From positions 56,482,001 through 56,546,000 of the forward strand of contig JAGIQG010000013.1 of NCBI GenBank assembly GCA_024679065.1: 64,000 nt of DNA, given 5' to 3'. Position 1 is the stretch's first letter; the number at the start of each line of letters is the position of its first letter. The stretch comes from Sphyrna mokarran. Taxonomy: Eukaryota. Positions 24,241 to 60,405 of this stretch are shown one piece after another. The position numbers and the translations under genes were made by a program. The notes under the pieces were generated by a model. It ran no database searches, was not told the DNA's origin, and saw only the letters and a program-made list of their open reading frames with translations.

Positions 24241-24315
24241 ACTTGTGGCTGTACCTGGGTGTACTGGGCCACTTGGGGCAAACATTTGGCATGAGGCAGG
24301 GCTAGTCTGGAGACT

Positions 24316-25455
24316 TAGAACATAGAACATAGAACATAGAACATTACAGCACAGAACAGGCCCTTCGGCCTTCGATGTTGTGCCGACCAAAATAAAAAGC
24401 AATGCCCCTCCAAACTAAACCATTCCCTTCTCTTCCATATACTTATCAATTAACCTCTTAAACGCCACCAAACTTGGCGCATCTACAACAGCTGCAGGCA
24501 GGGCATTCCACTCCCTAATCACTCTTTGAGTAAAGAACCTACCTCTGATATCCGTCCTATAACTCATACCCCTTAATTTAAAGCTGTGTCCCCTCGTGCT
24601 AGCTTTCTCCATCCTAGGAAAAAGGCTATCACTGTCCACCCTATCTGAACCTCTAATCATCTTATATGCTTCAATAAGATCCCCTCTTAGCCGCCTCCTT
24701 TCTAACGAAAACAACCTCAAATCCTTCAACCTCTCTTCATAGGACCTGCCCTCCATACCAGGCAACATCCTGGTAAACCTCCTCTGTACCCTCTCCAATG
24801 CCTCCACATCTTTCTTATAATGTGGCGACCAGAACTGCACACAATACTCCAAGTGCGGCCGCACTAGAGTTTTGTACAGTTGCAACATGATGCTGCGGCT
24901 CCTAAATTCAATCCCCCTACCAATAAAAGCTAAGACTCCATATGCCTTCTTAACAACTTTATCCACTTGACTGCCTACTTTCAGGGATCTATTGACACAT
25001 ACACCAAGATCCTTCTGTTCCTCAACACTATTAAGAGCCCTACCATTAGCCCTATACTCTACACATTTATTGTTCCTGCCAAAGTGCATTACCTCACACT
25101 TTTCCACATTAAACTCCATTTGCCACCTCTCGGCCCAGCTCTGCAACTTGTCCAAGTCTCTCTGCAAACTATAACACCCCTCTTCACTATCTACCACTCC
25201 ACCGACTTTAGTGTCATCTGCAAATTTACTGATCCATCCCTCAATACCCTCATCCAGATCATTTATAAAAATTACAAACAGCAGGGGCCCCAAAACAGAC
25301 CCCTGAGGCACACCACTCGTCACCGAACTCCACGATGAATATCTCCCATCAACCACCACCCTCTGTCTTCTATCTGCCAGCCAATTCCTAATCCAATTAG
25401 CTAAATCACCCTCTATTCCACACATCTGCATTTTCTGTAGAAGTCTTCCATGGGC
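24316..25455 (-). mobile_element. Young 5'-truncated CR1/HER1 LINE (open RT C-terminal half)
   Basis: Uninterrupted 338-aa ORF with GVPQGSVLGP and ISKFADDTK; (TTCTATG)n tail; stem-loop ggccgaagggcc. Confidence 0.97.
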
Positions 25456-28055
25456 AAACTTCTCATGATGACTTCAATGAGAGCCAAAGTAAAAATGGTG
25501 ATGATGTTGAGCAACTGGAGACATTGATGTTCAGTTGTTTGGTGTTTGATTGTGTGTGACTGTTGACTGTGAGCTGAAAGTCGACTTTGTGGATGGGGTG
25601 ACAGAGAAACTGAGAGCAAATGGGAAGCACGAGAGGGCAAATATTTTCAAAGCATTGAATAAAGCTCCTATTCACACATAGAACCTGGATCCTCTCCGCA
25701 TATCTCTCAGGCACAAAACACAATGGGCCTTTACTGGACTTTATGGCCTCACTTGTCCCGAAACCATAAAATCCCACCCAATGTCAATGGACCTTCCCAC
25801 TGTCTGTCCCTCATCTGTTCTGATATCCATGGTGGGCAGGATGGTAAAATTCCAATCAATACCTGATGACAAGAATGGGTTGGATTTATACGTGCGAGGT
25901 AAGAAATGAAAGGATTGTTTAATATTAACTTCACAAGGGCATATGCAAAACCCCTGTCAATCTTGGCCTTTAAAAAAATTTAAAAATCAAATAAATTACA
26001 CAGAATGCATCCCTTCTGACTTTGCTCAGAGAGTTCATAGAAAACTTGCAGGGGCTGATTGGGGAAGTCTCCATCAGCTTCAGTGTGTTTGTGAGAATTG
26101 GTACACCCACCACTGAACTGTACAAAGCAGCACTTGCACTTACCTGCCACATGCTGCTAATAAGGTGTTCTCCCACCAATCCTACAATCACTGACAGATA
26201 CAGCGCTGGAGGGTGCCATTGGGAATAATCCTGGTGTTATCAGAAAATAAAGCAGCAACCATAACAAACAGAAGGCTTCATTCCACAATGTTTCTAAAAA
26301 AATAAACCCCACCTGGGTGCATATGTTCTTCTGGATTTAATTTAAACAAGATGAATAGATGTGAGTAAAGAGGTGAGTAAGTCTGGTAGACAACAATCAA
26401 TGGCCATTTCATCTGTTATTCCCATAACTCGCTTTCATCGCCAAAATAAGTAGAAAAAAATTTAAAAATGTTTTTTATTAAACTCTTCAAAGGCCTGTCT
26501 TGAGAAAATTGTGTAGGGCTACATGAAGTTAGTGTGGTGATTGGTTAGACAAAGGAAGTGCAAATTTCAATGTGTCAGCACAGTTAGTATTCATTGTTTA
26601 AAACAAATCTATATATAGTGGTGTCCAGTAACAATGCACTGATGCTATAAATAATTCTGATGTGTTTTATAAAAACATTGCTTTTTTGATGGCATTAATT
26701 TTTTAAATACACAATAAAACTCATTTGAAGGAAAGGTGTAATGCATGGATGCTTCAATGTGCCACACTGAGTATGATTTAGCACTCTGATGATGTGAAAT
26801 AATTTAGCAACATTTTCAAATCTAGGTTTCTTATATGCTGTGAAGACAGGCAAAGAGACCTGTAGTAATCTGAAATGCACGGCTAACACTTATTCTATGA
26901 TCTTCTAGAGGAAAGACTCAAAATCAAGTAATGATTTGATAATCATCATGAAAAATGCATCTCTGCACTTTTTGAGAAACTGTTGATGTCCCCTTAGAAC
27001 ATTTTCTAGTTCACCTACACTTACATGAAGGTGACTCTCCTTTTCTAAACTAACCTCAAGTCCCGTTCTCACTTTAAACCAAACATCAGCCTATTTCCCT
27101 TCTCCTGACATTAGCCTTTGATGATTGTGCATCTGCTTTTTTTCAGACATGTCTTAAGTTCTATTGCAGACTGCCACATGTTTTAAATTTTTTGCAACAT
27201 TGTAAAATATATTTGAGAAAAGATGTGCATGTGTCAAAAATATGCAACCATTTACTAATTTATTATTGCTTCTTTTGGTTCTTTCAGGTCACAACTTTAT
27301 ATAACTTGCGTATTCATGTTGCCAGCTTGGTGATGACTGTCAATAAGAAGGCAATTCTACAGTATAACCAGGGTGAAGTTGCTTATTGGTGGTGTTAATG
27401 TCAAAGATTCTCATTCAAGAGTCTACCTACAGTTCTTGAGGTTGTCAGGTTTTGTGGCTGTAACAGGATCTGAAGAATTATCATTTTATTACACTTTTTT
27501 TTGTATTCGACTTACAATCTTTCTGTTTATAATGAACATAGCTCTTATTACAATATCACAGATTTCCTTTGGGTAGGTGACATTTCAGAGTTTCGGAGGT
27601 CCCTAGAAGTGTATTAATATTTTCAGGCCCATGCTGAAAATCGAAACTCTTGGTTTATAGAGACCTGCTATAAAGGTTCACTCTTAATTAATTATGTAGT
27701 ACAATATGCATGGGTAGAAAAAAATGTCATGTAGTACAAAAGCTACTTAACTGAGACAAATCATAATGGCAGTACATCTGACCTATTCTGGCATTTGTTA
27801 GAGTTGCACATTCCTAAGATCTGTTACACACAGGCTGCAAATTTATATTTTTAATAAATTACAGGAGTATACTTGACAAAACAAATTTCCTTGGGGATAA
27901 CTGGGGTTAAAGACCATGGGATATTCAGGAACAATTCATTAGTATGTTAGGGACAAAAATGCTGTCACACTACTCCTGCCCTACACCAGGAGCAAAAATC
28001 CTGAAGACATTCAGTTTCAGCATGGTTATCCATCCATTCACTGAGATAGATACAA

Positions 28056-29565
28056 ACAGTAAGAAGTCTCACAACACCAGGTTAAAGTCCAACAGGTTTA
28101 TTTGGTAGCACAAGCCACTAGCTTTTGAAGCACTGCCCCTTCATCAGGTTAGTGAGATTTCAGTTCACAAACAGGGCATATAAAGACACAAACTCAATTT
28201 ACAAGATAATGGTTGGAACGCAAGTCTTATCAAGTTTTAAAGGTACAGACACTGTGAGTGGAGAGAGGGTTAAGCACAGGCTAAAGAAATGTGTATTATC
28301 TCCAGCCAGGACCGTTAGTGAGATTTTGCAAGTCTAGGCAAATCGTGGGGGGTTACAGATAGTGTGACATGAATCCAAGATCCCGGTTGAGACCGTCCTC
28401 ATGTGTGTGGAACTTGGCTATCAGTCTCTGCTCAGGACTCTGCGTTGTCTCTGCAACAGACACCTCCAGATGCTGAAAGATGCCCTCATAAGAACAGGAT
28501 ATGGTGCTCAACTCATCAATTGACAGTTCTGATGCACCACAGCAAAAAACCAAACCGACCTCCTCAGAAGACAAACACAGGACACGGTGAAGTAACCTTC
28601 ATTGGCCAGAACTTTCCCAGAGTGGAGAAGCTATGACATCTTCTTCAGACTTTCAACATTTCATTGATGAAGACGATCATCTCGCCCAAGGCCATCCCCA
28701 CACCCCCACTTCTTCCCTTCAAACAACCATACAACCTCAAACAGATTATTGTCCGCAGCAAACTACCCAGCCTTCAGGAGAACAGTGACTACAATACCAC
28801 ACAACCCTGCCACAGCAACCTCGGCAAACGTGCTGGATCATTGACACAGATGCCATTATCTCATGTGAGAACACCATCCATCAGATACACAGTACATACA
28901 CTTGCAAATCGTACAATGCTGTCTACCTGATACACTGCAGGAAAGGATGTCACAAGGCATGGTACATTGGGGAGACTATTCAAACGCTATGTCAATGGAT
29001 GAATGAACACCACTTGATAATCACCAGGTAAGAGTGTTCTCCTCCTGTTGGGGAATACTTCAGCAGTCACGGGCATTCGGCCTCTGATCTTCAGATAAGT
29101 GTTCTCCAAGGCAGGCTTCATGACACACGACTGCGTAGAGTCACTGAGCAAGACTGATAGCCAAGTTCCATACACGAGGATGGCTTCAACCGGCATTTTG
29201 GGTTCAATTCACACTATCTGTAACCCCCATGACTTGCCTGGGCTTGCAAAATCTCACTAACTGTCCTGACTGGAGACAATACACATTTCTTTAACCTGTG
29301 CTTAACCCTCTCTCCACTCACATTGTCCATACCTTTAAGACTTGATTACCTGTAAAGACTTGCATTCCAACCATTATTTTGTAAATTGAGTTTGTGTCTT
29401 TATATGCTCTGTTTGTGAACTGAAATTCCACTCATCTGATGGAGGGGCAGTGCTCCAAATGTTAGTGGCTTGTGCTACCAAATAAACCTGTTGGACTTTA
29501 ACCTGGTGTTGTGAGACTTCTTATTGTATTACCCCCAGTCCAACACACGTCCTATTATGGCTGCC
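28056..29565. mobile_element. Penelope-like retroelement: truncated, inverted terminal copy, GIY-YIG remnant, 10-bp TSD
   Basis: 28056-~28446 is the reverse complement of ~29130-29527. Decayed CKSYNAVYLIHCRKGCHKAWYIGET (GIY-YIG) at ~28900-28980. ATAGATACAA duplicated at 28046-28055 and 29566-29575. Confidence 0.9.
28118..28154 (-). ncRNA. Degenerate minimal type-I hammerhead ribozyme in Penelope terminus
   Basis: Minus strand cactaacCTGATGAaggggcagtgcttc(a)AAAgcTAgtg; the G of GAAA is lost, consistent with CpG decay. Second copy on plus at ~29428-29467 (CTGATGG..ctccAAAt). Confidence 0.7.
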
Positions 29566-31520: not shown

Positions 31521-33943
31521 GATTGGAATAGCTATAGCTCTAGCTCGTTAGAGGGGTCAGTTTTCGTACAGAGTGTGCAGGAAGGTTTTTTGACTCAGTA
31601 TGTAGAGAGGCCAACTAGAGGTGAGGCTACATTGGATTTGGTGCTGGGCAATGAGACAGACCAGGTGTTAGGCTTGGAAGTTAGTGAACATTTTGGTGAT
31701 AGTGACCACAATTCGGTTACGTTCACCTTAGTGATGGATAAGGATAGGCATGAAGCTGGGGGCAGTAGTTATAGCTGGGGGAAGAGTAATTATGAGGCCA
31801 TAAGGAGAGAATTAGGGTGCATAGTTTGGACTAGGAAACTACAGGGACTGGGAACATCTGAAATGTGGAGCTTATTCAAGGAGCAGCTACTGCGAGTCCT
31901 TGATAAGTATGTTCCTGTCAGGCAAGGAGGAAATGGTCGAGTAAGGGAACCATGGTGTACTAAAAAAGTTAATTCGCTGGTTAAAAGGAAAAAGGAGGCT
32001 TATGTCAGGATGAGGCTTGAGGGCTCAGTTAGTGCAATGGATAGCTATAGATTAGCCAGGAGGGAGCTAAAGAGTGAGTTGAGGAGAGCTAAGAGGAGAC
32101 ACGAGAAGACTTTGGCTGATAGGATTAAGGAGAATCCTAAAGCTTTCTTTAGATATGTTAAGAATAGAAGATTGGTTAGGGCAAGATTAGGGCCAGTCAT
32201 AGACAGCAGTGGGAAGTTGTGCGTGGAGACTGAAGAGATTGGTGAGGCACTGAATAAATATTTCTCTTCGGTATTCACGCAGAGTGCTGGAAATGTAGCT
32301 ATGGCGAACACTGAGGTACAGGGTTGCAAATTGGGAAGTATTGTAGTAGATAGGGAGGATGTGTTAGAAATTCTCGAGGGTTTGAAGTTGGATAAGTCCC
32401 CTGGGCCGGACGGGATTTACCCTAGGATTCTCGGGGAGGCAAGAGAGGAGATTGCAGAGCCTCTGGCTCTGATCTTCAGGTCCTCGTTGGTTACGGGTGT
32501 GGTTACGGAGGACTGGAGGATGGCGAATGTGGTCCCATTGTTTAAGAAGGGGAAGAGAGACCTTCCTGGGAATTATAGGCCAGTGAGTCTTACTTCTGTG
32601 GTGGGCAAGGTATTGGAGAGAATTATTAGGGATATGATTTATAGTTATTTAGAGAGAAATGAATTGATTGGGGATAGTCAGCATGGTTTCATGAAGGGTA
32701 GGTCATGCCTTACTAACCTCATTGAGTTTTTTGAGAAAGTGACCAGAGAGGTGGATGGGGTAAGGCGGTTGATGTAGTATATATGGACTTTAGTAAGGCG
32801 TTTGATAAGGTGGCCCATGGAAGACTTCTGCAGAAAACGCAGATGTATGGGATAGAGGGTGATTTAGCTAATTGGGTTAGGAATTGGCTAGCAGATAGAG
32901 ACAGAGGGTGGTGGTTGATGGGAGATATTCATCTTGGAGTTCGGTGACAAGTGGTGTACCTCAGGGGTCTGTTTTGGGGCCCCTGCTGGTTGTAATTTTT
33001 ATAAATGATCTGGATGAGGGTATTGAAGGATGGATTAGTAAATTTGCAGATGACACTAAAGTCGGTGGGGTGGTAGATAGTGAAGAGGGGTGTTATAGTT
33101 TGCAGAGAGACTTGGACAAGTTGCAGAGCTGGGCTGAGAGGTGGCAAATGGAGTTTAATGTGGAAAAGTGTGAGGTAATGCACTTTGGCAGGAACAATAA
33201 ATGTGTAGAGTATAGGGCTAATGGTAGGGCTCTTAATAGTGTCGAGGAACAGAAGGATCTTGGTGTATGTGTCAATAGATCCCTGAAAGTAGGCAGTCAA
33301 GTGGATAAAGTTGTTAAGAAGGCATATGGAGTCTTAGCTTTTATTGGTAGGGGGATTGAATTTAGGAGCCGCCGCATCATGTTGCAACTGTACAAAACTC
33401 TAGTGCGGCCGCACTTGGAGTATTGTGTGCAGTTCTGGTCCCACATTATAAGAAAGATGTGGAGGCATTGGAGAGGGTACAGAGGAGGTTTACCAGGATG
33501 TTGCCTGGTATGGAGGGCAGGTCCTATGAAGAGAGGTCGAAGGATTTGAGGTTGTTTTCGTTAGAAAGGAGGCGGCTAAGAGGGGATCTTATTGAAGCAT
33601 ATAAGATGATTAGAGGTTTAGATAGGGTGGACAGTGATAGCCTTTTTCCTAGGATGGAGAAAGCTAGCACGAGGGGACACAGCTTTAAATTAAGGGGTAT
33701 GAGTTATAGGACGGATATCAGAGGTAGGTGCTTTACTCAAAGAGTGATTAGGGAGTGGAATGCCCTGCCTGCAGCTGTGTAGATGCGCCAAGTTTGGTGG
33801 CGTTTAAGAGGTTAATTGATAAGTATATGGAAGAGAAGGGAATGGTTTAGTTTGGAGGGGCATTGCTTTTTATTTTGGTCGGCACAACATCGAAGGCCGA
33901 AGGGCCTGTTCTGTGCTGTAATGTTCTATGTTCTATGTTCTAT
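31521..33943 (+). mobile_element. Young 5'-truncated CR1/HER1 LINE (end of APE domain, RT, tail)
   Basis: LDLVLGNE, GDSDHN, KSPGPDG, NYRPVSLTS, FADD across ORFs broken only by 1-bp deletions; (TTCTATG)n tail; possible ATCTT TSD (31516-31520, 33942-33946). Confidence 0.97.
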
Positions 33944-36544
33944 CTTCACTGAGTCTTCAGTATTTTTTTGAGAAGGGAGACATTACATTTTGAACCTTAC
34001 ATGATATATACTGCTGTCTCTGTTTTTCAAGTGCCACAGATAATACTGACAGAGAATTTGCTAGTAAAATAACTACAGTTTGATATGCATTCTGTTGTTG
34101 GCGTGCACATCATTGAGCAATTTGTGATCAGTAGGAGATACCCTATCAACTGTGAATTTCTATGTGACAGTAGTTCCCATGCCAGACCATTACCATCATG
34201 ACAATAGAAGCTCACCATCAACACTATCTCGAGTTTCAAGACATGCTTGTATTTGCAGTGCCAATATGAATTAAACTCATAGCTGAAAATTATGGTTAGT
34301 ATTTTACTGCTTACAGACTTTTAAAATGACAAATCGTGTGTTCTTGCCATCCCAAACTCTCTGCTCTAGTAACAACTCAATTATGAAATCTCATCCCTGC
34401 AGGTAATAAATTGTTCCTGTAAGTTTTTTTAAAAATTTTATTAGTTTTTCTTTTACTTTCTGTGCCATTTTTTTATTTATCTCACTTAATTCAAATTTTC
34501 TTTCTCTCTCTTCACTTCCTTTCTATATGCAATCGGACTCAAATTCACACTGTGTTTCTCTGGCTTTAATTTTTGTCGATTAAGGTGCTGGTTTCATTCT
34601 TCACCGGATCCCAGGTGTCCTAAAGAGCTCCCCAAACCATTTAAAAGTCACGCCTTCAGCAATTTTCAGTGCAAAATTGTTTTCAAACTGAAGGGAAAGG
34701 GAAAAACTAAAGTCACAAAGCACACCAGGAAAGATAAGCTTCTGATGTCATTGAATGGCATGATATTCGCTTCACTTAGCCAGGAAGAGCTAAATTTTCA
34801 GCTTGGAGTAACATTTTCATTCCTGGGTGTGTGGGGTGGGGAGAGGGGTGCTGTTGGTGAGGGTGTTGGGGTAGGTGCTAACTGGACTCGGAAACAGCAA
34901 GGAAACAGAAAAATGTGAATTGCCAAATGCTGAGGCAAGCTGGTTAAAAGCCCAACTAGCCCGAGTTGTAATAAGAAGGGAAACACAAAAAAAAGCCTGC
35001 CGGCCCTCTCCCTTCACACACTTCCTATGCCCCATCCCTGCCAAACTATACCTCTTCACTCACCACCAATGCCTCTCAATGCTCATGCCAACCAATGCTC
35101 CACACTCCTAATGACCTTTCTTACCCTCCATTACAACTTATGGAACTTCCATGCTTATTTACACAGTATACATTCTGTCCAGAACCAATGAGCTCTTTAT
35201 GGTAGCAATGGCAGGTATGGAAGACTTTTAAAAAAATTCATTCATAACTTTCTTTACAAAACTAATTTTATTGTCATGTCAATCACCCTGAAAGTATCAA
35301 CAGCAGTAATTACAAACACTTGACAGTGCCCTATTTAGTGTAAATAAACAATTGAGAAAATAGATCTAAGAGAAAGATTTTTCAGTCAAGCATGCTTCCC
35401 CTTGAGCACAGTGGTTTCAACAGAATCATGGATGTCTGGACTCTTAGCCAAGCTGCGTAAACATTCTTCACTTGAAATTGCATGTGTATGCATGCAGCAA
35501 CTCACACACTTGATTGCTTTTGTAAGCTACTAAACATGCTCAACCATGCAAAAAAAATTAAAGCAGCCACGTATTTAACCAAATTGTGCACCAACCTCCT
35601 TCTCTCCCCAAAGAGAAAATAAGGGCATGTTTACCTCACAGGTAAAGAATTTATTAAAGTTATAAAGTAGCATTTGATCAGTTGCACTTACAGCAAAGGA
35701 TGACCAATTTAGAGATTGCCCTTCCAATCAGGATTATCCACTATCCCTTCCTCAAAATAATTATGCTGGATGGAAGTGAGACATAGTATGGAGCAACCTG
35801 ATTGTGAGATTTCTGCGTAAGTGTTTGAGCTCTGATACCTTGAACGATGACTCTACTTATCCCACTTCTAGTGCAATGATAATATATGCTGCTAGTTCAA
35901 GGATCAGGAAACGGACAATTCAGAGCAAGCAGGCACTGAGCTACAAATATGGGAATGGAATGTTCTTTTGCTAATGTTTCTGATTTGTTTGTTATCCTAT
36001 GTGCCTGATTAAAGAATCCACAATGCCATGATCCTTGTGACTCCTGGATTGAATTATAACTTTGAACTCTCAGCCCACCAACCATGTACTCTAAATTGAA
36101 TTCAAGAAAATACTGTCCATTATTAAGAGATCCATCAGGTTCTACAGTCAAAACAATCTGGATTCACCATACAGCTCCACCCTGACGTAGTGGAACTAAA
36201 TGGTTGATGAGAATAAATGACACTTGTCAGTGAATTATGATAAAAGATTACACTGATAACTTCTTTGTAGTGATCATCTGTTAATTGGATAATACAGTGC
36301 AGAATTGGAGCACTTATCCAAGCATGTGTGTGCCAGATTTGAAAGAGTTGTTTGTTCTAATTCTCAGATGTTGTACGACCTGCCACCACTGCCAGCGAGA
36401 ACAGAGAATTTGGTGCTCAGATAATCTTCAATCACAGCAGCGGGACTGGAGAATCCCAACCCAGGGCAAGGTCAGAGAATCCTAGCCATTAAATAGGGTT
36501 CCCAGATTTATCCCTTTCTGAATCTGCACAAAATGCTCTGTTGG

Positions 36545-54570: not shown

Positions 54571-56111
54571 TTTAAGAGCAACACAGCACGGGAAACAGGC
54601 CCTTCGGCCCAACGAGCCCGCGCCGCCGTCATAACTATATAGTAGCAATTCCATTATCCTATTATAGATTTAGGTTATTCCTAATATGGAAGACTCTCAC
54701 TATAGGGACAATTTGTTTCCCAATTAGCCTAAGAGCGAATTTTTGGGTTGTGGGAGGAAACCGGAGCGCCCGGAGAAAACCCACGCAACCACGGGGAGAA
54801 CGCGCAAACTCCCGCAGACACCGGCCCAATTCCAAGTGTCTGCACAGCCACATCGATAGTCTCTGAGCTGTCATGGTGCCCTTCAGATGGTCCACATAAA
54901 GCACTCATTTACGACATGAGGTACCAGGCAACCCATGAATCAACATCCAAGAGCTGTCCTCGCACCACCTGCCGAATGCATGCTCCTTGTTGGTCAAGTA
55001 TGGACCGAATTACCTGTGGAAAAAAAGCCATAGTTAAACAGTCCTACTATATCCCTCTATCTGCATACCGCTCATGTGGCTGTCCAAGAGACCCTTAAAC
55101 AGCCCCAGCGTGCCTGCTCCCACCACCTTACTCGGCAGTGCATTCCACACCCCCACTACCCTTTGTGTGAAAAACTGCCCTCTAATATTCGTCTTATACA
55201 TAGCCCCCCTCACCCTATGGCCATGACCCCTCGTCCTATCCATTTCTGAAGGTGGAAAAAGTTTACCTCCATTTACTCTATCTATACCCCTTATAATCTT
55301 ATACACCTCTATGAGATCCCCTCTAAGCCGACGTTTTTCAAGGGAAAACAACCCCAGTCTATTTAATCGTTCCTCATAAGATAATTTTATAAGGGGTTAG
55401 ATAGAGTAAATGGAGGTAAACTTTTTCCACCTTCAGAAATGGATAGGACGAGGGGTCATGGCCTTAGGGTGAAGGGGGCTATGTATAAGACGAATATTAG
55501 AGGGCAGTTTTTCACACAAAGGGTAGTGGGGGTGTGGAATGCACTGCCGAGTAAGGTGGTGGGAGCAGGCACGCTAGGGCTGTTTAAGGGTCTCTTGGAC
55601 AGCCACATGAGCGGTATGCAGATAGAGGGATATAGTAGGACTGTTTAACTATGGCTTTTTTTCCACAGGAAATTCGGTCCATACTTGACCAACAAGGAGC
55701 ATGCATTCGGCAGGTGGTGCGAGGACAGCTCTTGGATGTTGATTCATGGGTTGCCTGGTACTTCATGTCGTAAATGAGTGCTTTATGTGGACCATCTGAA
55801 GGGCACCATGACAGCTCAGAGACTATCGCTGTAGCTGTGCAGACACTTGGAATTGGGCCGGTGTCTGCGGGAGTTTGCGCGTTCTCCCCGTGGTTGCGTG
55901 GGTTTTCTCCGGGCACTCCGGTTTCCTCCCACAACCCAAAAATTCGCTCTTAGGCTGATTGGGAAACAAATTGTCCCTATAGTGAGAGTCTTCCATATTA
56001 GGAATAACCTAAATCTATAATAGGATAATGGAATTGCTACTATATAGTTATGACGGCGGCGCGGGCTCGTTGGGCCGAAGGGCCTGTTTCCCGTGCTGTG
56101 TTGCTCTTAAA
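54571..56111. repeat. ~725-bp inverted repeat (54571-55296 and 55387-56111) with 90-bp spacer
   Basis: Arms are reverse complements with about 10 differences by manual count; spacer 55297-55381 is a direct repeat of 56118-56202. Confidence 0.97.
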
Positions 56112-58761
56112 AAAAAATCTTATACACCTCTATTAGATCCCCTCTAAGCCGACGTCTTTCAAGGGAAAACAACCCCAGTCTATTTAATCGTTCCTCATAA
56201 GACAGTCCTTCCATACCAGGCAGCATCCTGGTAAACCTCCTCTGCACTCTCTCCAAGGACTCCACATCCTTCCGATAGTACGGCGACCAGAACTGGACGC
56301 AGTATTCCAAGTGAGGCATAACCAACGTTCTATACAACTGCAACATCAAACTCCTACTCTTGTATTCTATACCCTTTTCTATGAAAGCTAACATACTATA
56401 CGTCTTCTTTATCACCTTCTCCACCTGTGAGGACACCTTCAGAGACTTGTGAACCTGCACCCCCAAGTCTCTCTGCGTCTCTATGCTCCGTATAGTTTTA
56501 CCTTTTATCCTATAACTCTCTTCTACATTTTTCCGGCCAAAATGCATCACCTCGCATTTATCCGGATTAAATTCCATTTGCCATCTATCTGCCCAGTCTA
56601 CCAACCTATCTATGTCCTGTTGTATTGCCTGGCACTGCTCCTCTGTACCCGCCAATCCAAGCATCTTAGTGTCATCAGCAAATTTGCTGATCTCACCACC
56701 TACCCCAACTTCCAAGTCGTTTATGTAGACCACAAATAGAAGAGGACCTAGTACTGAGCCTTGTGGCACTCCACTAGTGACAGGCTTCCAGCCGGAAAAA
56801 GAGCCTTCCACTACTACCCTCTGTCTCCTCCTCCCGAGCCAGTTCTCAACCCATCTACATACCCGACCCTGTATCCCATGCGCCTTCACCTTCTCTATCA
56901 GTCTACCATGAGGAACCTTGTCAAACGCCTTACTGAAATCCATGTAGACGACATCAACAGCATGTCCTTCATCAACTGTTTTTGTCACTTCTTCAAAAAA
57001 TTCCACTAGATTTGTAAGACAAGACTTCCCCTTGATGAAGCCATGCTGCGTATCCCTGATCAGATCGCAGTGCTCCAGATGCTCATACATCCTGTCCCTG
57101 AGAATCCTCTCCATTAGCTTACCTATAACTGAAGTCAAGCTCACCGGCCTATAGTTCCCTGGGTTATCCCTCTGAACTTTTTTAAACAACGGTACTACGT
57201 TTGCTATCCTCCAGTCCTCTGGGACCTCACCTGTGTCCAAGGAAGAGACAAAGATTTGCGTCAGAGGCCCAGCCAAGTCTTCCCTCAACTCCCTTAGCAG
57301 CCTGGGGTACATGCCATCAGGCCCCGGAGCTTTATATGTCTTTAAGCTGCCTAACAGCCCCAACACCTCTTTCCTCGTAATCTTTATTTCCCTCAATGGA
57401 TCCTCAACTTTGTCAACATCAGCAACAGACATCTGGCCAGTCTCCTGCGTGAATACCGACGCAAAGTATTCATTCAGGATCTCCCCCATTCCCTCAGGCT
57501 CTAAGCATAGATCCCCTCCTCTGTCCCTGAGGGGTCCAATCTTGCCTCTAACCATCCTTTTGCTCCTTACATAGGTGTAAAATGCCTTAGGATTTACCTT
57601 AATCCTACCTGCCAGAGCCACCTCGTGGCCCCTTTTTGCCTTTCTAACACCCCTTTTAAGATCCCTTCTACACTCTCTATAAGCTTCCAGCGCTGTCTCA
57701 GTCCCCAGTTGCCTAGATCTAATGTAAGCCTCTTGCTTCTTCCTGATCAAGTCCTCAATATCCCTGGTAAGCCACGGTTCTCTAATCCTACCTTTCCCAT
57801 CCTTCCTCCTTGCCGGCACGTATCTTTCCTGCAGAGAGTTTCGTTTTCCCTTGAAAGACTCCCACATGTACCTCGTCGACCTGCCCTCGAAAAGCTTATC
57901 CCAGTCGGTATCTTTAAGATCTTGCCTAATCTGGCTGTATCTAGCCCTCCCCCAGTTAAATACCTTCCCTTTTGGGCCTGTCTCGTCCTTTTCCATTAAT
58001 ATCCTAAAGCAGACAGAGTTGTGATCACTATTTGACACCTGCTCTCCTACCTCGGCGTCAACCACCTGGCCTGGCTCATTCCCCAGAACCAAATCCAGTA
58101 TAGCCCCCTCTCTAGTCGGGCCATCCACATACTGCTCCAAGGACCCTTCCAAAACACACTGTACAAATTCCTCCCCGTCCACTCCTACAGCTCTGGGCAC
58201 TCTCCAATCTCCTCCAGGAAAATTGAAATCTCCCACTACTACTACCCTATTTTTCCTACACTTATCTAAAATGTCCCTGCATATCCCTCCTTCCACGGCT
58301 CGCGGGCTGTTGGGCGGTCTGTAGTAAACACCCAACAGAGTAACCACTCCCTTCCTATTCCTCAACTCCACCCATAGAGACTCAATTCCTAAATCATCCA
58401 TACCTCCCTCCCTCTGCACTGCTAGGATGTTGTCCTTAACTAATAAAGCCACTCCCCCGCCTCTCCTCACACCAACTCTGTCATGCCTAAAACACTTATA
58501 CCCTGGAATATTCAATTGCCAGTCTTGCCCCTCCTTCAACCACGTCTCGGTCACCGCCACCACTTCTAAACTCCTCGTGAACATTATTGCCTTCAGTTCA
58601 TCTGTTTTGCCAGTCACACTCCTCGCATTAAAACACGTGCACTGAAGACCCTCAGCTCTCGGATATTCCTTTCTACCTTCTGGTGTTACCCTATCATCCC
58701 TCTCTCTCCCACTCCCAGTTCCCTCTCTCTCCCCACCCTCCCTCCCTATTAGTTTAAACAC
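56107..58761 (-). CDS. LINE ORF2: APE endonuclease plus reverse transcriptase, broken near the C-terminus by the rearrangement
   Basis: 884 codons without a stop: CFNARS, VTETW, GDFN, SDHN, GVPQGSVLGP, FADD. The missing C-terminus (IIRGIDRV..EGYSRTV*) is present in both inverted arms. Confidence 0.95.
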   Translation of the reverse strand: MFKLIGREGGEREGTGSGRERDDRVTPEGRKEYPRAEGLQCTCFNARSVTGKTDELKAIMFTRSLEVVAVTETWLKEGQDWQLNIPGYKCFRHDRVGVRRGGGVALLVKDNILAVQREGGMDDLGIESLWVELRNRKGVVTLLGVYYRPPNSPRAVEGGICRDILDKCRKNRVVVVGDFNFPGGDWRVPRAVGVDGEEFVQCVLEGSLEQYVDGPTREGAILDLVLGNEPGQVVDAEVGEQVSNSDHNSVCFRILMEKDETGPKGKVFNWGRARYSQIRQDLKDTDWDKLFEGRSTRYMWESFKGKRNSLQERYVPARRKDGKGRIREPWLTRDIEDLIRKKQEAYIRSRQLGTETALEAYRECRRDLKRGVRKAKRGHEVALAGRIKVNPKAFYTYVRSKRMVRGKIGPLRDRGGDLCLEPEGMGEILNEYFASVFTQETGQMSVADVDKVEDPLREIKITRKEVLGLLGSLKTYKAPGPDGMYPRLLRELREDLAGPLTQIFVSSLDTGEVPEDWRIANVVPLFKKVQRDNPGNYRPVSLTSVIGKLMERILRDRMYEHLEHCDLIRDTQHGFIKGKSCLTNLVEFFEEVTKTVDEGHAVDVVYMDFSKAFDKVPHGRLIEKVKAHGIQGRVCRWVENWLGRRRQRVVVEGSFSGWKPVTSGVPQGSVLGPLLFVVYINDLEVGVGGEISKFADDTKMLGLAGTEEQCQAIQQDIDRLVDWADRWQMEFNPDKCEVMHFGRKNVEESYRIKGKTIRSIETQRDLGVQVHKSLKVSSQVEKVIKKTYSMLAFIEKGIEYKSRSLMLQLYRTLVMPHLEYCVQFWSPYYRKDVESLERVQRRFTRMLPGMEGLSYEERLNRLGLFSLERRRLRGDLIEVYKIFF

Positions 58762-59518
58762 TTCTGAAACCCTCCAGCTAACCTCCCAGCTAAAATATGT
58801 GTTCCCCTCCCAGTCAACTGCTCCCTATCCCTCTTGAATAGATGACCCTCCCTCCTGAAGACCTCCCAATGACCAATGAATATGAAGCCTTCTGCCCTAC
58901 ACCAATCCCTCATCCATGCATTTAGTTGTAGTGTCTCATTTGTTTTTACCCAATCGGTCCCGGGCACAGGCCAGAGAACGCCACCCTGGAGGCCCTACCT
59001 TTCAGTTGAGCCCCCAACTCCCTAAAATGCCTACGTATGTCCCCCCTGTGCTTTCTTCCTACATCTTTCTGTCCTACGTGAACTATTACATTTGCCTTAG
59101 ACCCTTCTCCCTTCAAAATTCCCTCTACCCTCTCTGAAACATCCTGGACTCCTGCTCCAGGGAGGCAGACTACCATCCTGGAGTCTCTCTTTTGCCCACA
59201 GAAATGCCTATCGATTCCTATAACCATCCCATCCCCCACCAATATCTCACTTCCTACTTTCCTGCTGGTCTCTGTGGCATTCTGTTCCCCCTCACCTGCC
59301 CTCTCCATCACAGCTTTTACCCCTCCCTTGGTTTTCTGGGAATCCTCCTTAGAGATGGCCTTTGTGCCTTGATTTTTATTCTTGTTCCTCGTAACTGTAA
59401 CCAGCCTGTCCCTACTACTAGATCCTGGGGTCCCCGCAGGACTACCTTCCCTATTCATTGTAACCTCATTTTCCCTCACTAGACACATGTCCTCCAAGCG
59501 CAGCTCCAGCTGCCTCAA
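58749..59518 (-). pseudogene. LINE ORF1, 5'-truncated, coiled coil plus SGNH/GDSL esterase fold, one frameshift near 58960
   Basis: LRQLELRLEDM coil, ILVGDG, VCLPGAGVQDV, VIVHVGQKD, LNAWMRDWCRAEGFIFIGHW and FKRDREQL match the layout of CR1 ORF1 esterases. Confidence 0.85.
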
Positions 59519-60405
59519 CCTAGCGTTACAGGTTATATTGAACAGTAATTAGGTAAATATCTACAAAAATCTCTCAGGTTCATGATTTTTGTTATCTATA
59601 CTTCTAAAAACAATAGGAAAGAAATAAGTAATAGATTCTAACCAATAATTCTCAATACAACAAATCTAGATGTTGGTAATTTTCATTCATTCTGTTGCCA
59701 CCTCCAGACTCAATCTCTGGAATTCTATTGCTTTGCCCGCCACGGAATCGGAACAGGCAAGGGGCGGACAAAAGAAATGTCAGTTGACCTTGGGTGCAGA
59801 TTCCCAGTCTTGCTCAAGTGAGACTGTAAAATACTGCGCAATAACTCCAATTAAAGTAAAGTACAGTGAATGCTGGAACTCTGAAATAAAAACAGCTCAT
59901 GCTGGATAAACTCAGCAAGGGTGGCAGTATCTGCAGAGAGAAACAGAGTTAAAGGGCAGCATTTTTTAAAAATAAAATGGCAAAATGCCAGGTTCTGACT
60001 GAAAACTGATGTGTTTTTCTCCAGAAACACAGTTCATGTTTTCTCACCACAGCTTCTGACGCATGGTCAAAAAAATCTGGGAACGTGCTTTATGCCGTCA
60101 CTCTGGTGTGGACACTGCCGAATGCCAGGAGGCAGTGCCCAGCCTCAGCCCTCAAACCCCAGGGCCTCCAGCACCTCCACCTTACCAGTGTGGTCATGTT
60201 GATTGGTTGTTGTTTTTGAAACCAGTGATGAAATGTGCTGGAATAACATTATGCTGCTGGGAGGGAGCATTCCGCAGAGCTGGACAATACGATGCTGAGC
60301 CTTTTAATTATATTTAAGTTCATTCAAATCAGGTTCATACCCTTTCTGAGTGTGAATCTGATTACGTCGCCAGTGAGGGAACGGAAAGATCTCAAACCGA
60401 GCCAA

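Follow-up and report, generated by a model that had tools for sequence, protein, structure and literature searches.

A CR1 LINE lineage of Sphyrna mokarran with a V-SINE-derived segment in its 3' untranslated region

The locus and the question it raises

The stretch of Sphyrna mokarran DNA analyzed here (64,000 nucleotides (nt) of contig JAGIQG010000013.1, assembly GCA_024679065.1; hereafter the window, with positions counted from its first letter) contains a CR1 long interspersed element (LINE) whose 3' untranslated region (UTR) includes a segment resembling the core of a V-type short interspersed element (V-SINE). How did a SINE core come to reside in a protein-coding LINE, and why has it been kept? 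Taken as a whole, the best explanation is probably a single internal capture of a V-SINE, followed by decay of its promoter and retention of the V core as an RNA module.

The preliminary description of this DNA placed the stop codon of open reading frame 2 (ORF2) at 55646-55648, with ~460 nt of UTR behind it. The window sequence agrees: the UTR spans 55649-56117 on the plus strand, ~460 nt from the ORF2 stop to the end of the A run. A UTR of ~95 nt had been given for the CR1 copy at 24316, where we find ~100 nt after the stop. Two short-UTR CR1 copies in the window (24307-25465 and 32803-33960) are 97.4% identical and lie in opposite orientation. The parts of the long UTR and the ORF2 end before it are as follows.

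55381..55648, plus strand: last 89 codons of CR1 ORF2, in an inverted arm; stop TAA at 55646-55648
55644..55668, plus strand: branch-point-like motif, pyrimidine tract and AG (splice-acceptor-like), found in all five subfamilies
55669..55800, plus strand: folded 132-nt block with no assigned origin; closing helix 55676-55681 with 55788-55793
55801..55861, plus strand: remnant of a tRNA-derived SINE head, A box broken (55812-55822)
55862..55962, plus strand: V domain, 101 nt, 82% identity to the local SINE consensus
55963..56054, plus strand: fast-changing spacer, its first part still SINE-like
56055..56117, plus strand: terminal stem-loop (LINE-type) and A run

Near 55852, 18-19 nt covering the B box are deleted from the head remnant. 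The SINE of the window, with its A box, B box, shared core and CR1-type tail, has an anatomy consistent with the names HE1 (for the SINE) and V (for the core), which we take to apply.

A multi-copy lineage with five subfamilies

The linkage of ORF2, UTR, V and tail had been proposed to mark a real multi-copy family, and a junction-spanning probe recovers many copies. This 606-nt probe over the ORF2-UTR-V-tail junctions returned 1446 candidates, and all 40 of the 40 scored were 99-100% identical; the family-wide linkage rules out a one-off nested insertion. Exact matches numbered 9371 for a 33-letter variant of V and 40,586 for an 18-letter head motif, with none for either reversed control. Of the V-variant loci, the first 30 were read: 27 continue into ORF2, three are cut within the UTR, and an intact A or B box occurs in none of them. 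A further 40 loci, selected solely by the head motif (the top 46 of its matches minus six examined before), reach at least 62 nt upstream into LINE sequence in every case and carry V in 39; no B box, no SINE-like start at the head and no free SINE form were seen among these 40.

Copies found through the ORF1 region extend to the V-bearing tail in 17 of 20 cases. The ORF1 start was located in 18 of these 20, and 12 of the 18 have an open frame of 301 codons. One of the 20 combines ORF1 with 937 open codons across both ORF2 domains, beginning before the endonuclease match, and a full stop-to-stop ORF2 frame (~990 codons) occurs in none of them. The frame breaks differ among copies, as would be expected if the master copy was intact. 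Copies of the lineage have the V domain, lack intact A and B boxes and lack a short unit starting at the head; as in a CR1 LINE, they have a terminal stem-loop, a repeat tail and variable 5' truncation. The chimera is a real CR1 lineage, not a V-SINE. Part of the stretch is also present in 19 public runs (13 studies, ten organism labels), and a contig of 206 nt from a run of organism J spans the head remnant and V; contigs from these runs carry no information on expression. Four of 58 copies (L015, L062, L071 and L073) lie tail to tail with another CR1 3' end, and nested CR1 copies at many loci hint at a target preference.

The five subfamilies (A, to which the window copy belongs, B, C, D and E) share a common plan of stop, acceptor-like motif, 132-135-nt block, head remnant, 101-nt V, spacer and tail. 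The spacer between V and tail measures 51-154 nt by subfamily, and the 3' UTR of the lineage ~420-640 nt, compared with ~100 nt in the window's sister CR1. Median divergence from the consensus is 0.6% in A, 3.7% in C, 6.2% in D and 6.7% in E, values that run low and come partly from best matches. One copy (L201) has a D-like head with an altered stretch just ahead of its B-box relic and is possibly another variant. In three others (L034, L039 and L045), the first part of the 5' UTR is tandemly repeated.

In a tree of 61 ORF2 ends (267 columns; only copies from the S. mokarran genome, with six A rows and a lone E row labelled D), the 27 V-bearing rows form one branch (95/96) as against 34 short-UTR rows. 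The order within this branch has weak support, and D, which keeps a full head, is not placed outside the other subfamilies with support (88/70). The UTR types fit the ORF2 branches with the minimum possible number of changes, and the V-bearing lineage probably had one origin.

Homology to the local SINE, and direction and place of capture

The V-like stretch matches 10 SINE copies within the window (E values of 3e-13 to 1e-4). The homology to V of these SINEs claimed at the outset holds, with the subfamily A consensus identical at 83/101 positions and 0/2000 shuffles scoring as high; the boundaries, first given as ~55860-55980, are corrected to 55862-55962. Across subfamilies, V is 82-88% identical to the consensus of the local SINE, built from 29 copies. 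At 55904-55907 within V, all five subfamilies read TTTT where the SINE consensus has three T; this could be a Pol III (RNA polymerase III) stop.

A decayed tRNA head had been suspected upstream of V. A head remnant without a B box is indeed there, with its start moved to 55801, and it becomes clear only via subfamily D: homology is weak in the window copy alone (18/2000 shuffles score as high), whereas the 80-nt head of D aligns to the whole SINE head (53/79 identical, 0/2000 shuffles as high). D retains the whole tRNA-derived head with letters changed in both promoter boxes, and A, B, C and E have 18-20 nt over the B box deleted. Because D holds a complete tRNA-derived head with broken boxes, the direction is from SINE to LINE, and the alignment of D's head with the full SINE head bears out the proposal that the LINE captured a V-SINE. 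The reverse direction, in which the LINE UTR was the ancestral source of the SINE V domain, has parallels in other SINE bodies that arose from LINE UTRs (PMC5786205; this and the other papers cited here by PMC number are drawn on from portions of their text). We regard it as extremely improbable, since it is contradicted by the relic boxes in D's whole head, by the nesting of the V-bearing clade among short-UTR CR1s and by the range of V-SINEs from vertebrates to cnidarians (PMC4824008).

The terminal stem-loop reported after V is confirmed, with the tail starting at 56055. The idea that the SINE itself became the 3' end of the LINE does not survive: the tail matches the sister CR1 at 43/48 positions and the SINE tail at only 35/52. 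Because the tail matches the sister CR1 better than the SINE, the capture was internal, ahead of a tail that belongs to the LINE. A search for a SINE-type lead-in attached to this tail had a single match, and this sole candidate for a donor SINE with the LINE's tail proved to be a subfamily C copy; an extinct donor of that kind may nevertheless have existed. Copies of HE1 in rays presumably share some of these letters. An older subfamily with an intact promoter was also sought among 167 matches with a GG-ending A box; the 20 read belong to the same lineage and none has an intact B box.

Constraint on V

Among subfamilies A, C, D and E, identity in V is 89-98%, and fourfold silent ORF2 sites are only 59-78% identical (V higher, Fisher P 1e-7 to 3e-5). 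The corresponding values are 87-96% for ORF2 codon positions 1+2, 62-85% for the spacer after V and 92-98% for the tail; the upstream block, compared with A, is 67-73% identical, below V. V is as conserved as coding positions. Copies of C, D and E were collected without the V core (the D probe included V's first ~20 letters), and B rows, which were mixed with A copies, were left out of the comparison, so that B figures come from the consensus. The excess over silent sites amounts to constraint and agrees with the retention of V stated in the preliminary description. Its statement that V was kept while the Pol III promoter was lost stands in both halves; V is not the sole part retained, as the promoter-dead head, the 132-nt folded block and the acceptor-like motif were also kept.

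V could instead be a neutral passenger that only appears conserved, because subfamilies recently exchanged 3' modules or because the abundant SINE converted the LINE copies. It has been suggested that the conserved domains of SINEs act as hotspots of recombination (PMC5804259), and the failure of full-head D to fall outside the other subfamilies in the ORF2 tree would suit such exchange. We consider a neutral passenger unlikely: the spacer between V and tail changes at approximately the silent-site rate, unlike the outcome of a block swap; V changes common to A-E are absent from the SINE, so conversion by the SINE fails to explain them; and the parsimonious fit of UTR types to ORF2 branches speaks against exchange.

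Predicted RNA structure

When each consensus is folded alone, head and V form the same predicted junction, in which the 5' end of the head pairs with V and 29-45 pairs are held in common with the SINE fold. Measured against the SINE fold as a constant reference, the LINE changes disrupt 6-8 of its pairs, versus 12-15 expected when substitution types are preserved (P 0.002-0.013), a signal that lies mostly in the head. The fold tests used the subfamily C consensus, since most C copies in the constraint set had been chosen for a GG-ending A box. In a structure derived from the same and related rows, and illustrative only, 91% is paired and 12 pairs show two-sided change. The UTR of the window copy folds better than 100/100 shuffles (z -3.75), and the upstream block folds strongly in consensuses A-D (z -2.5 to -5.0); a short hairpin of this block is partly lost in subfamily A. 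An Rfam search at five loci gave three weak matches, none in the UTR or the folded block. A stem-loop in a V subdomain has been predicted for invertebrate SINEs and is said not to hold for fish V-SINEs, according to part of the text of PMC4758252.

V might also work at the DNA level, through factor binding or a chromatin signal favouring master copies. The loops of V are conserved as well as its stems, and a headless V-SINE body persists in the DNA transposon MER6 (PMC6887750), both in keeping with such a role. Head changes that preserve pairing, with two-sided changes between SINE and LINE rows, and the constant sense orientation of V beside the tail argue for RNA instead and make a DNA-level function very improbable.

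The splice-acceptor-like motif

The pyrimidine tract and CAG/G are retained in A-E despite the shrinking of the DNA ahead of them (stop-to-AG distance 20 nt in A, 21 in B, 81 in C and 168 in D), and the conserved parts all start directly past the AG. These features would also be expected of a terminal exon, in which the motif joins block, head, V and tail to a donor in the LINE 5' UTR or to host exons, with selection acting on a short RNA. In subfamily A, a TATA-like box lies in the 5' UTR, as does a donor-like motif ~75 nt upstream of ORF1; a 5' UTR was recovered from none of 10 extended C, D or E loci, so what is said of the donor motif applies to A only. Donor-like motifs are found in several published catshark CR1 5' ends too, so the donor is not special. 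A donor-acceptor join occurs in no genomic copy (0 spliced retrocopies were found), 15 copies vary near the AG with no upstream exon in common, and no such joint was present among 15 of 31 joints listed from contigs of four runs. We therefore think a terminal exon rather improbable.

Proposed mechanism and points against it

Under the favored single capture, a V-SINE (tRNA head and V) would have become part of the 3' UTR of an active CR1 master in one event, ahead of the tail that the LINE already had, through either a template switch or a nested insertion whose SINE tail was lost later. The chimera founded a lineage of at least five subfamilies, in which both promoter boxes decayed and the B box was deleted afterwards. 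An internal Pol III start could have produced short RNAs with a cognate tail that competed for the ORF2 protein, and the boxes may have been purged for this reason. Head and V may have been retained as a folded RNA module that aids the LINE mRNA (stability, export or assembly of ribonucleoprotein) before the tail-primed step; we infer that V has its role on the LINE RNA. A bolder version, to which we give a little less than an even chance, is that V and the paired tRNA-derived head form a transferable RNA module that boosts retrotransposition in cis without dependence on Pol III; the LINE would have taken it back from its own parasite, and purifying selection would have maintained it through five subfamilies.

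Several observations weigh against this interpretation. The 34 sister rows lack V, so V is not required for CR1 mobility. In the V-only pair test, significance is reached for A only (P 0.01; B-E, P 0.10-0.33); pair tests of D versus other subfamilies are not significant (P 0.11-0.26); and the fold of V by itself has no exceptional stability (z -1.1 to +0.9). The upstream block is 88-96% identical among C, D and E, as conserved as V (P 0.2-0.7). Comparisons between pairs of subfamilies share branches and are not independent, and the ORF2 tree was built on the short alignment of 267 columns. The evidence as a whole consists of sequence comparisons and predicted folds.

Other features of the window

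The ORF2 end and UTR listed above had been called a plus arm. The sequence is as described; its nature is corrected to an inverted 730-nt copy (98.4% identity over 732 nt). The copied sequence is the 3' end of a CR1 element on the minus strand, which extends from 59524 to 54571 and has the same UTR at 54571-55032.

54571..55381, minus strand: own 3' end of the minus-strand element; ORF2 end (stop near 55033) and same UTR, V at ~54720-54820
56116..58824, minus strand: main ORF2 part, 905 open codons; endonuclease aa 66-268, reverse transcriptase aa 553-769
58752..59524, minus strand: 5'-truncated ORF1, codons 60-319 of the family frame; frame break near 58960
55295..55381, no strand: 87-nt duplication flanking the inverted arm; other copy at 56116-56202

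ORF2 of this element is open on either side of the inversion, and its CR1 domains, an apurinic endonuclease and a reverse transcriptase (Pfam PF03372, PF14529 and PF00078), all score above cut-offs. The truncated ORF1 piece in the window has no Pfam match; we take this ORF1 to be esterase-like. Within 54571-56202, the inverted arm is cut at its 5' side, and was inserted, at the one ORF2 position where the 87-nt duplication ends, which suggests a fold-back or homology-guided event and not a random second insertion. Elsewhere in the window, an inverted repeat of ~390 nt (28056-29527, 88% identity) possibly marks the ends of a DNA transposon. A tRNA scan of the window found 0 genes.

Significance and comparison with known systems

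The reason for the conservation of SINE central domains across phyla is an open question, and RNA stability is among the proposed roles (PMC4824008). A 2016 paper, in the portion used here, reports no highly conserved SINE domain in LINEs (PMC5804259). The lineage described here is a counter-example with a built-in clock: adjacent silent ORF2 sites give the drift expected of V, and V has changed much less than that. V is uncoupled from Pol III transcription here, a point against a role purely as a promoter, and the lineage provides a natural experiment, with natural variants, on the role of the V core. If V does form a transferable RNA module, the lineage would be the first among LINEs to carry V, and the conservation of V would be linked to an advantage for the mobile RNA. 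Over 40,000 copies may be wrongly annotated as SINE fragments.

A search of the open-access literature, with the original HE1/V-SINE papers, Repbase and Dfam outside it, found no V-bearing LINE, nor does one appear in the portions used of PMC3747384, PMC13174262, PMC11481361, PMC5499810 and PMC13343379. Four 5' motifs had no match in the 2026 CR1 catalogue (PMC13343379) within the first ~400 letters per entry, and the 3' UTRs beyond could hold the lineage. V outside SINEs is already known from MER6; by this literature search, with Repbase and Dfam outside it, V in a CR1 LINE lineage appears to be new.

The usual flow, in which a SINE borrows from a LINE, is reversed in this lineage. Between HE1 and HER1, only the tail is known to be shared. 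HE1 is a V-SINE of sharks and rays with HER1 as its partner LINE (PMC3747384), and the element described here resembles that system in its tRNA-derived head, V core and CR1-type terminal stem-loop; it differs in that head and V are embedded in a LINE with coding frames, neither promoter box is intact and the tail belongs to the LINE. In stringent LINEs, the ORF2 protein binds the stem-loop in the tail of its own element (PMC4176376). Vertebrate CR1 LINEs with an esterase-type ORF1 consist of ORF1, then endonuclease and reverse transcriptase, with a stem-loop tail and 5'-truncated copies (PMC13343379), whereas the present lineage has a 3' UTR of ~420-640 nt that holds a SINE-derived module.

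Chimeric Alu/LINE-1 insertions (PMC13174262) likewise join SINE and LINE at the RNA or reverse-transcription stage; they are single insertions, with the SINE on the 5' side, and in the text drawn on they found no lineage. The 5' UTRs of RTE, Ingi-3_AC and R4-1_ADi contain stretches that resemble the Ceph domain, with SINE recombination suggested for Ingi-3_AC (PMC5786205). This is a further case of a conserved SINE domain in common with a LINE UTR, but it involves another domain and the 5' UTR, runs mostly from LINE to SINE and, in the text drawn on, comes with neither a relic of the head nor a measure of constraint. A non-autonomous Tc1/Mariner element, MER6/MER6A, holds a headless V-SINE body and tail (PMC6887750) and shows that V can be taken up by a different type of mobile element and multiplied in the absence of a Pol III promoter. 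MER6, a DNA element, is non-coding and had a single old burst, whereas here V was captured by a coding retroelement that gave rise to successive subfamilies in which selection on V can be measured.
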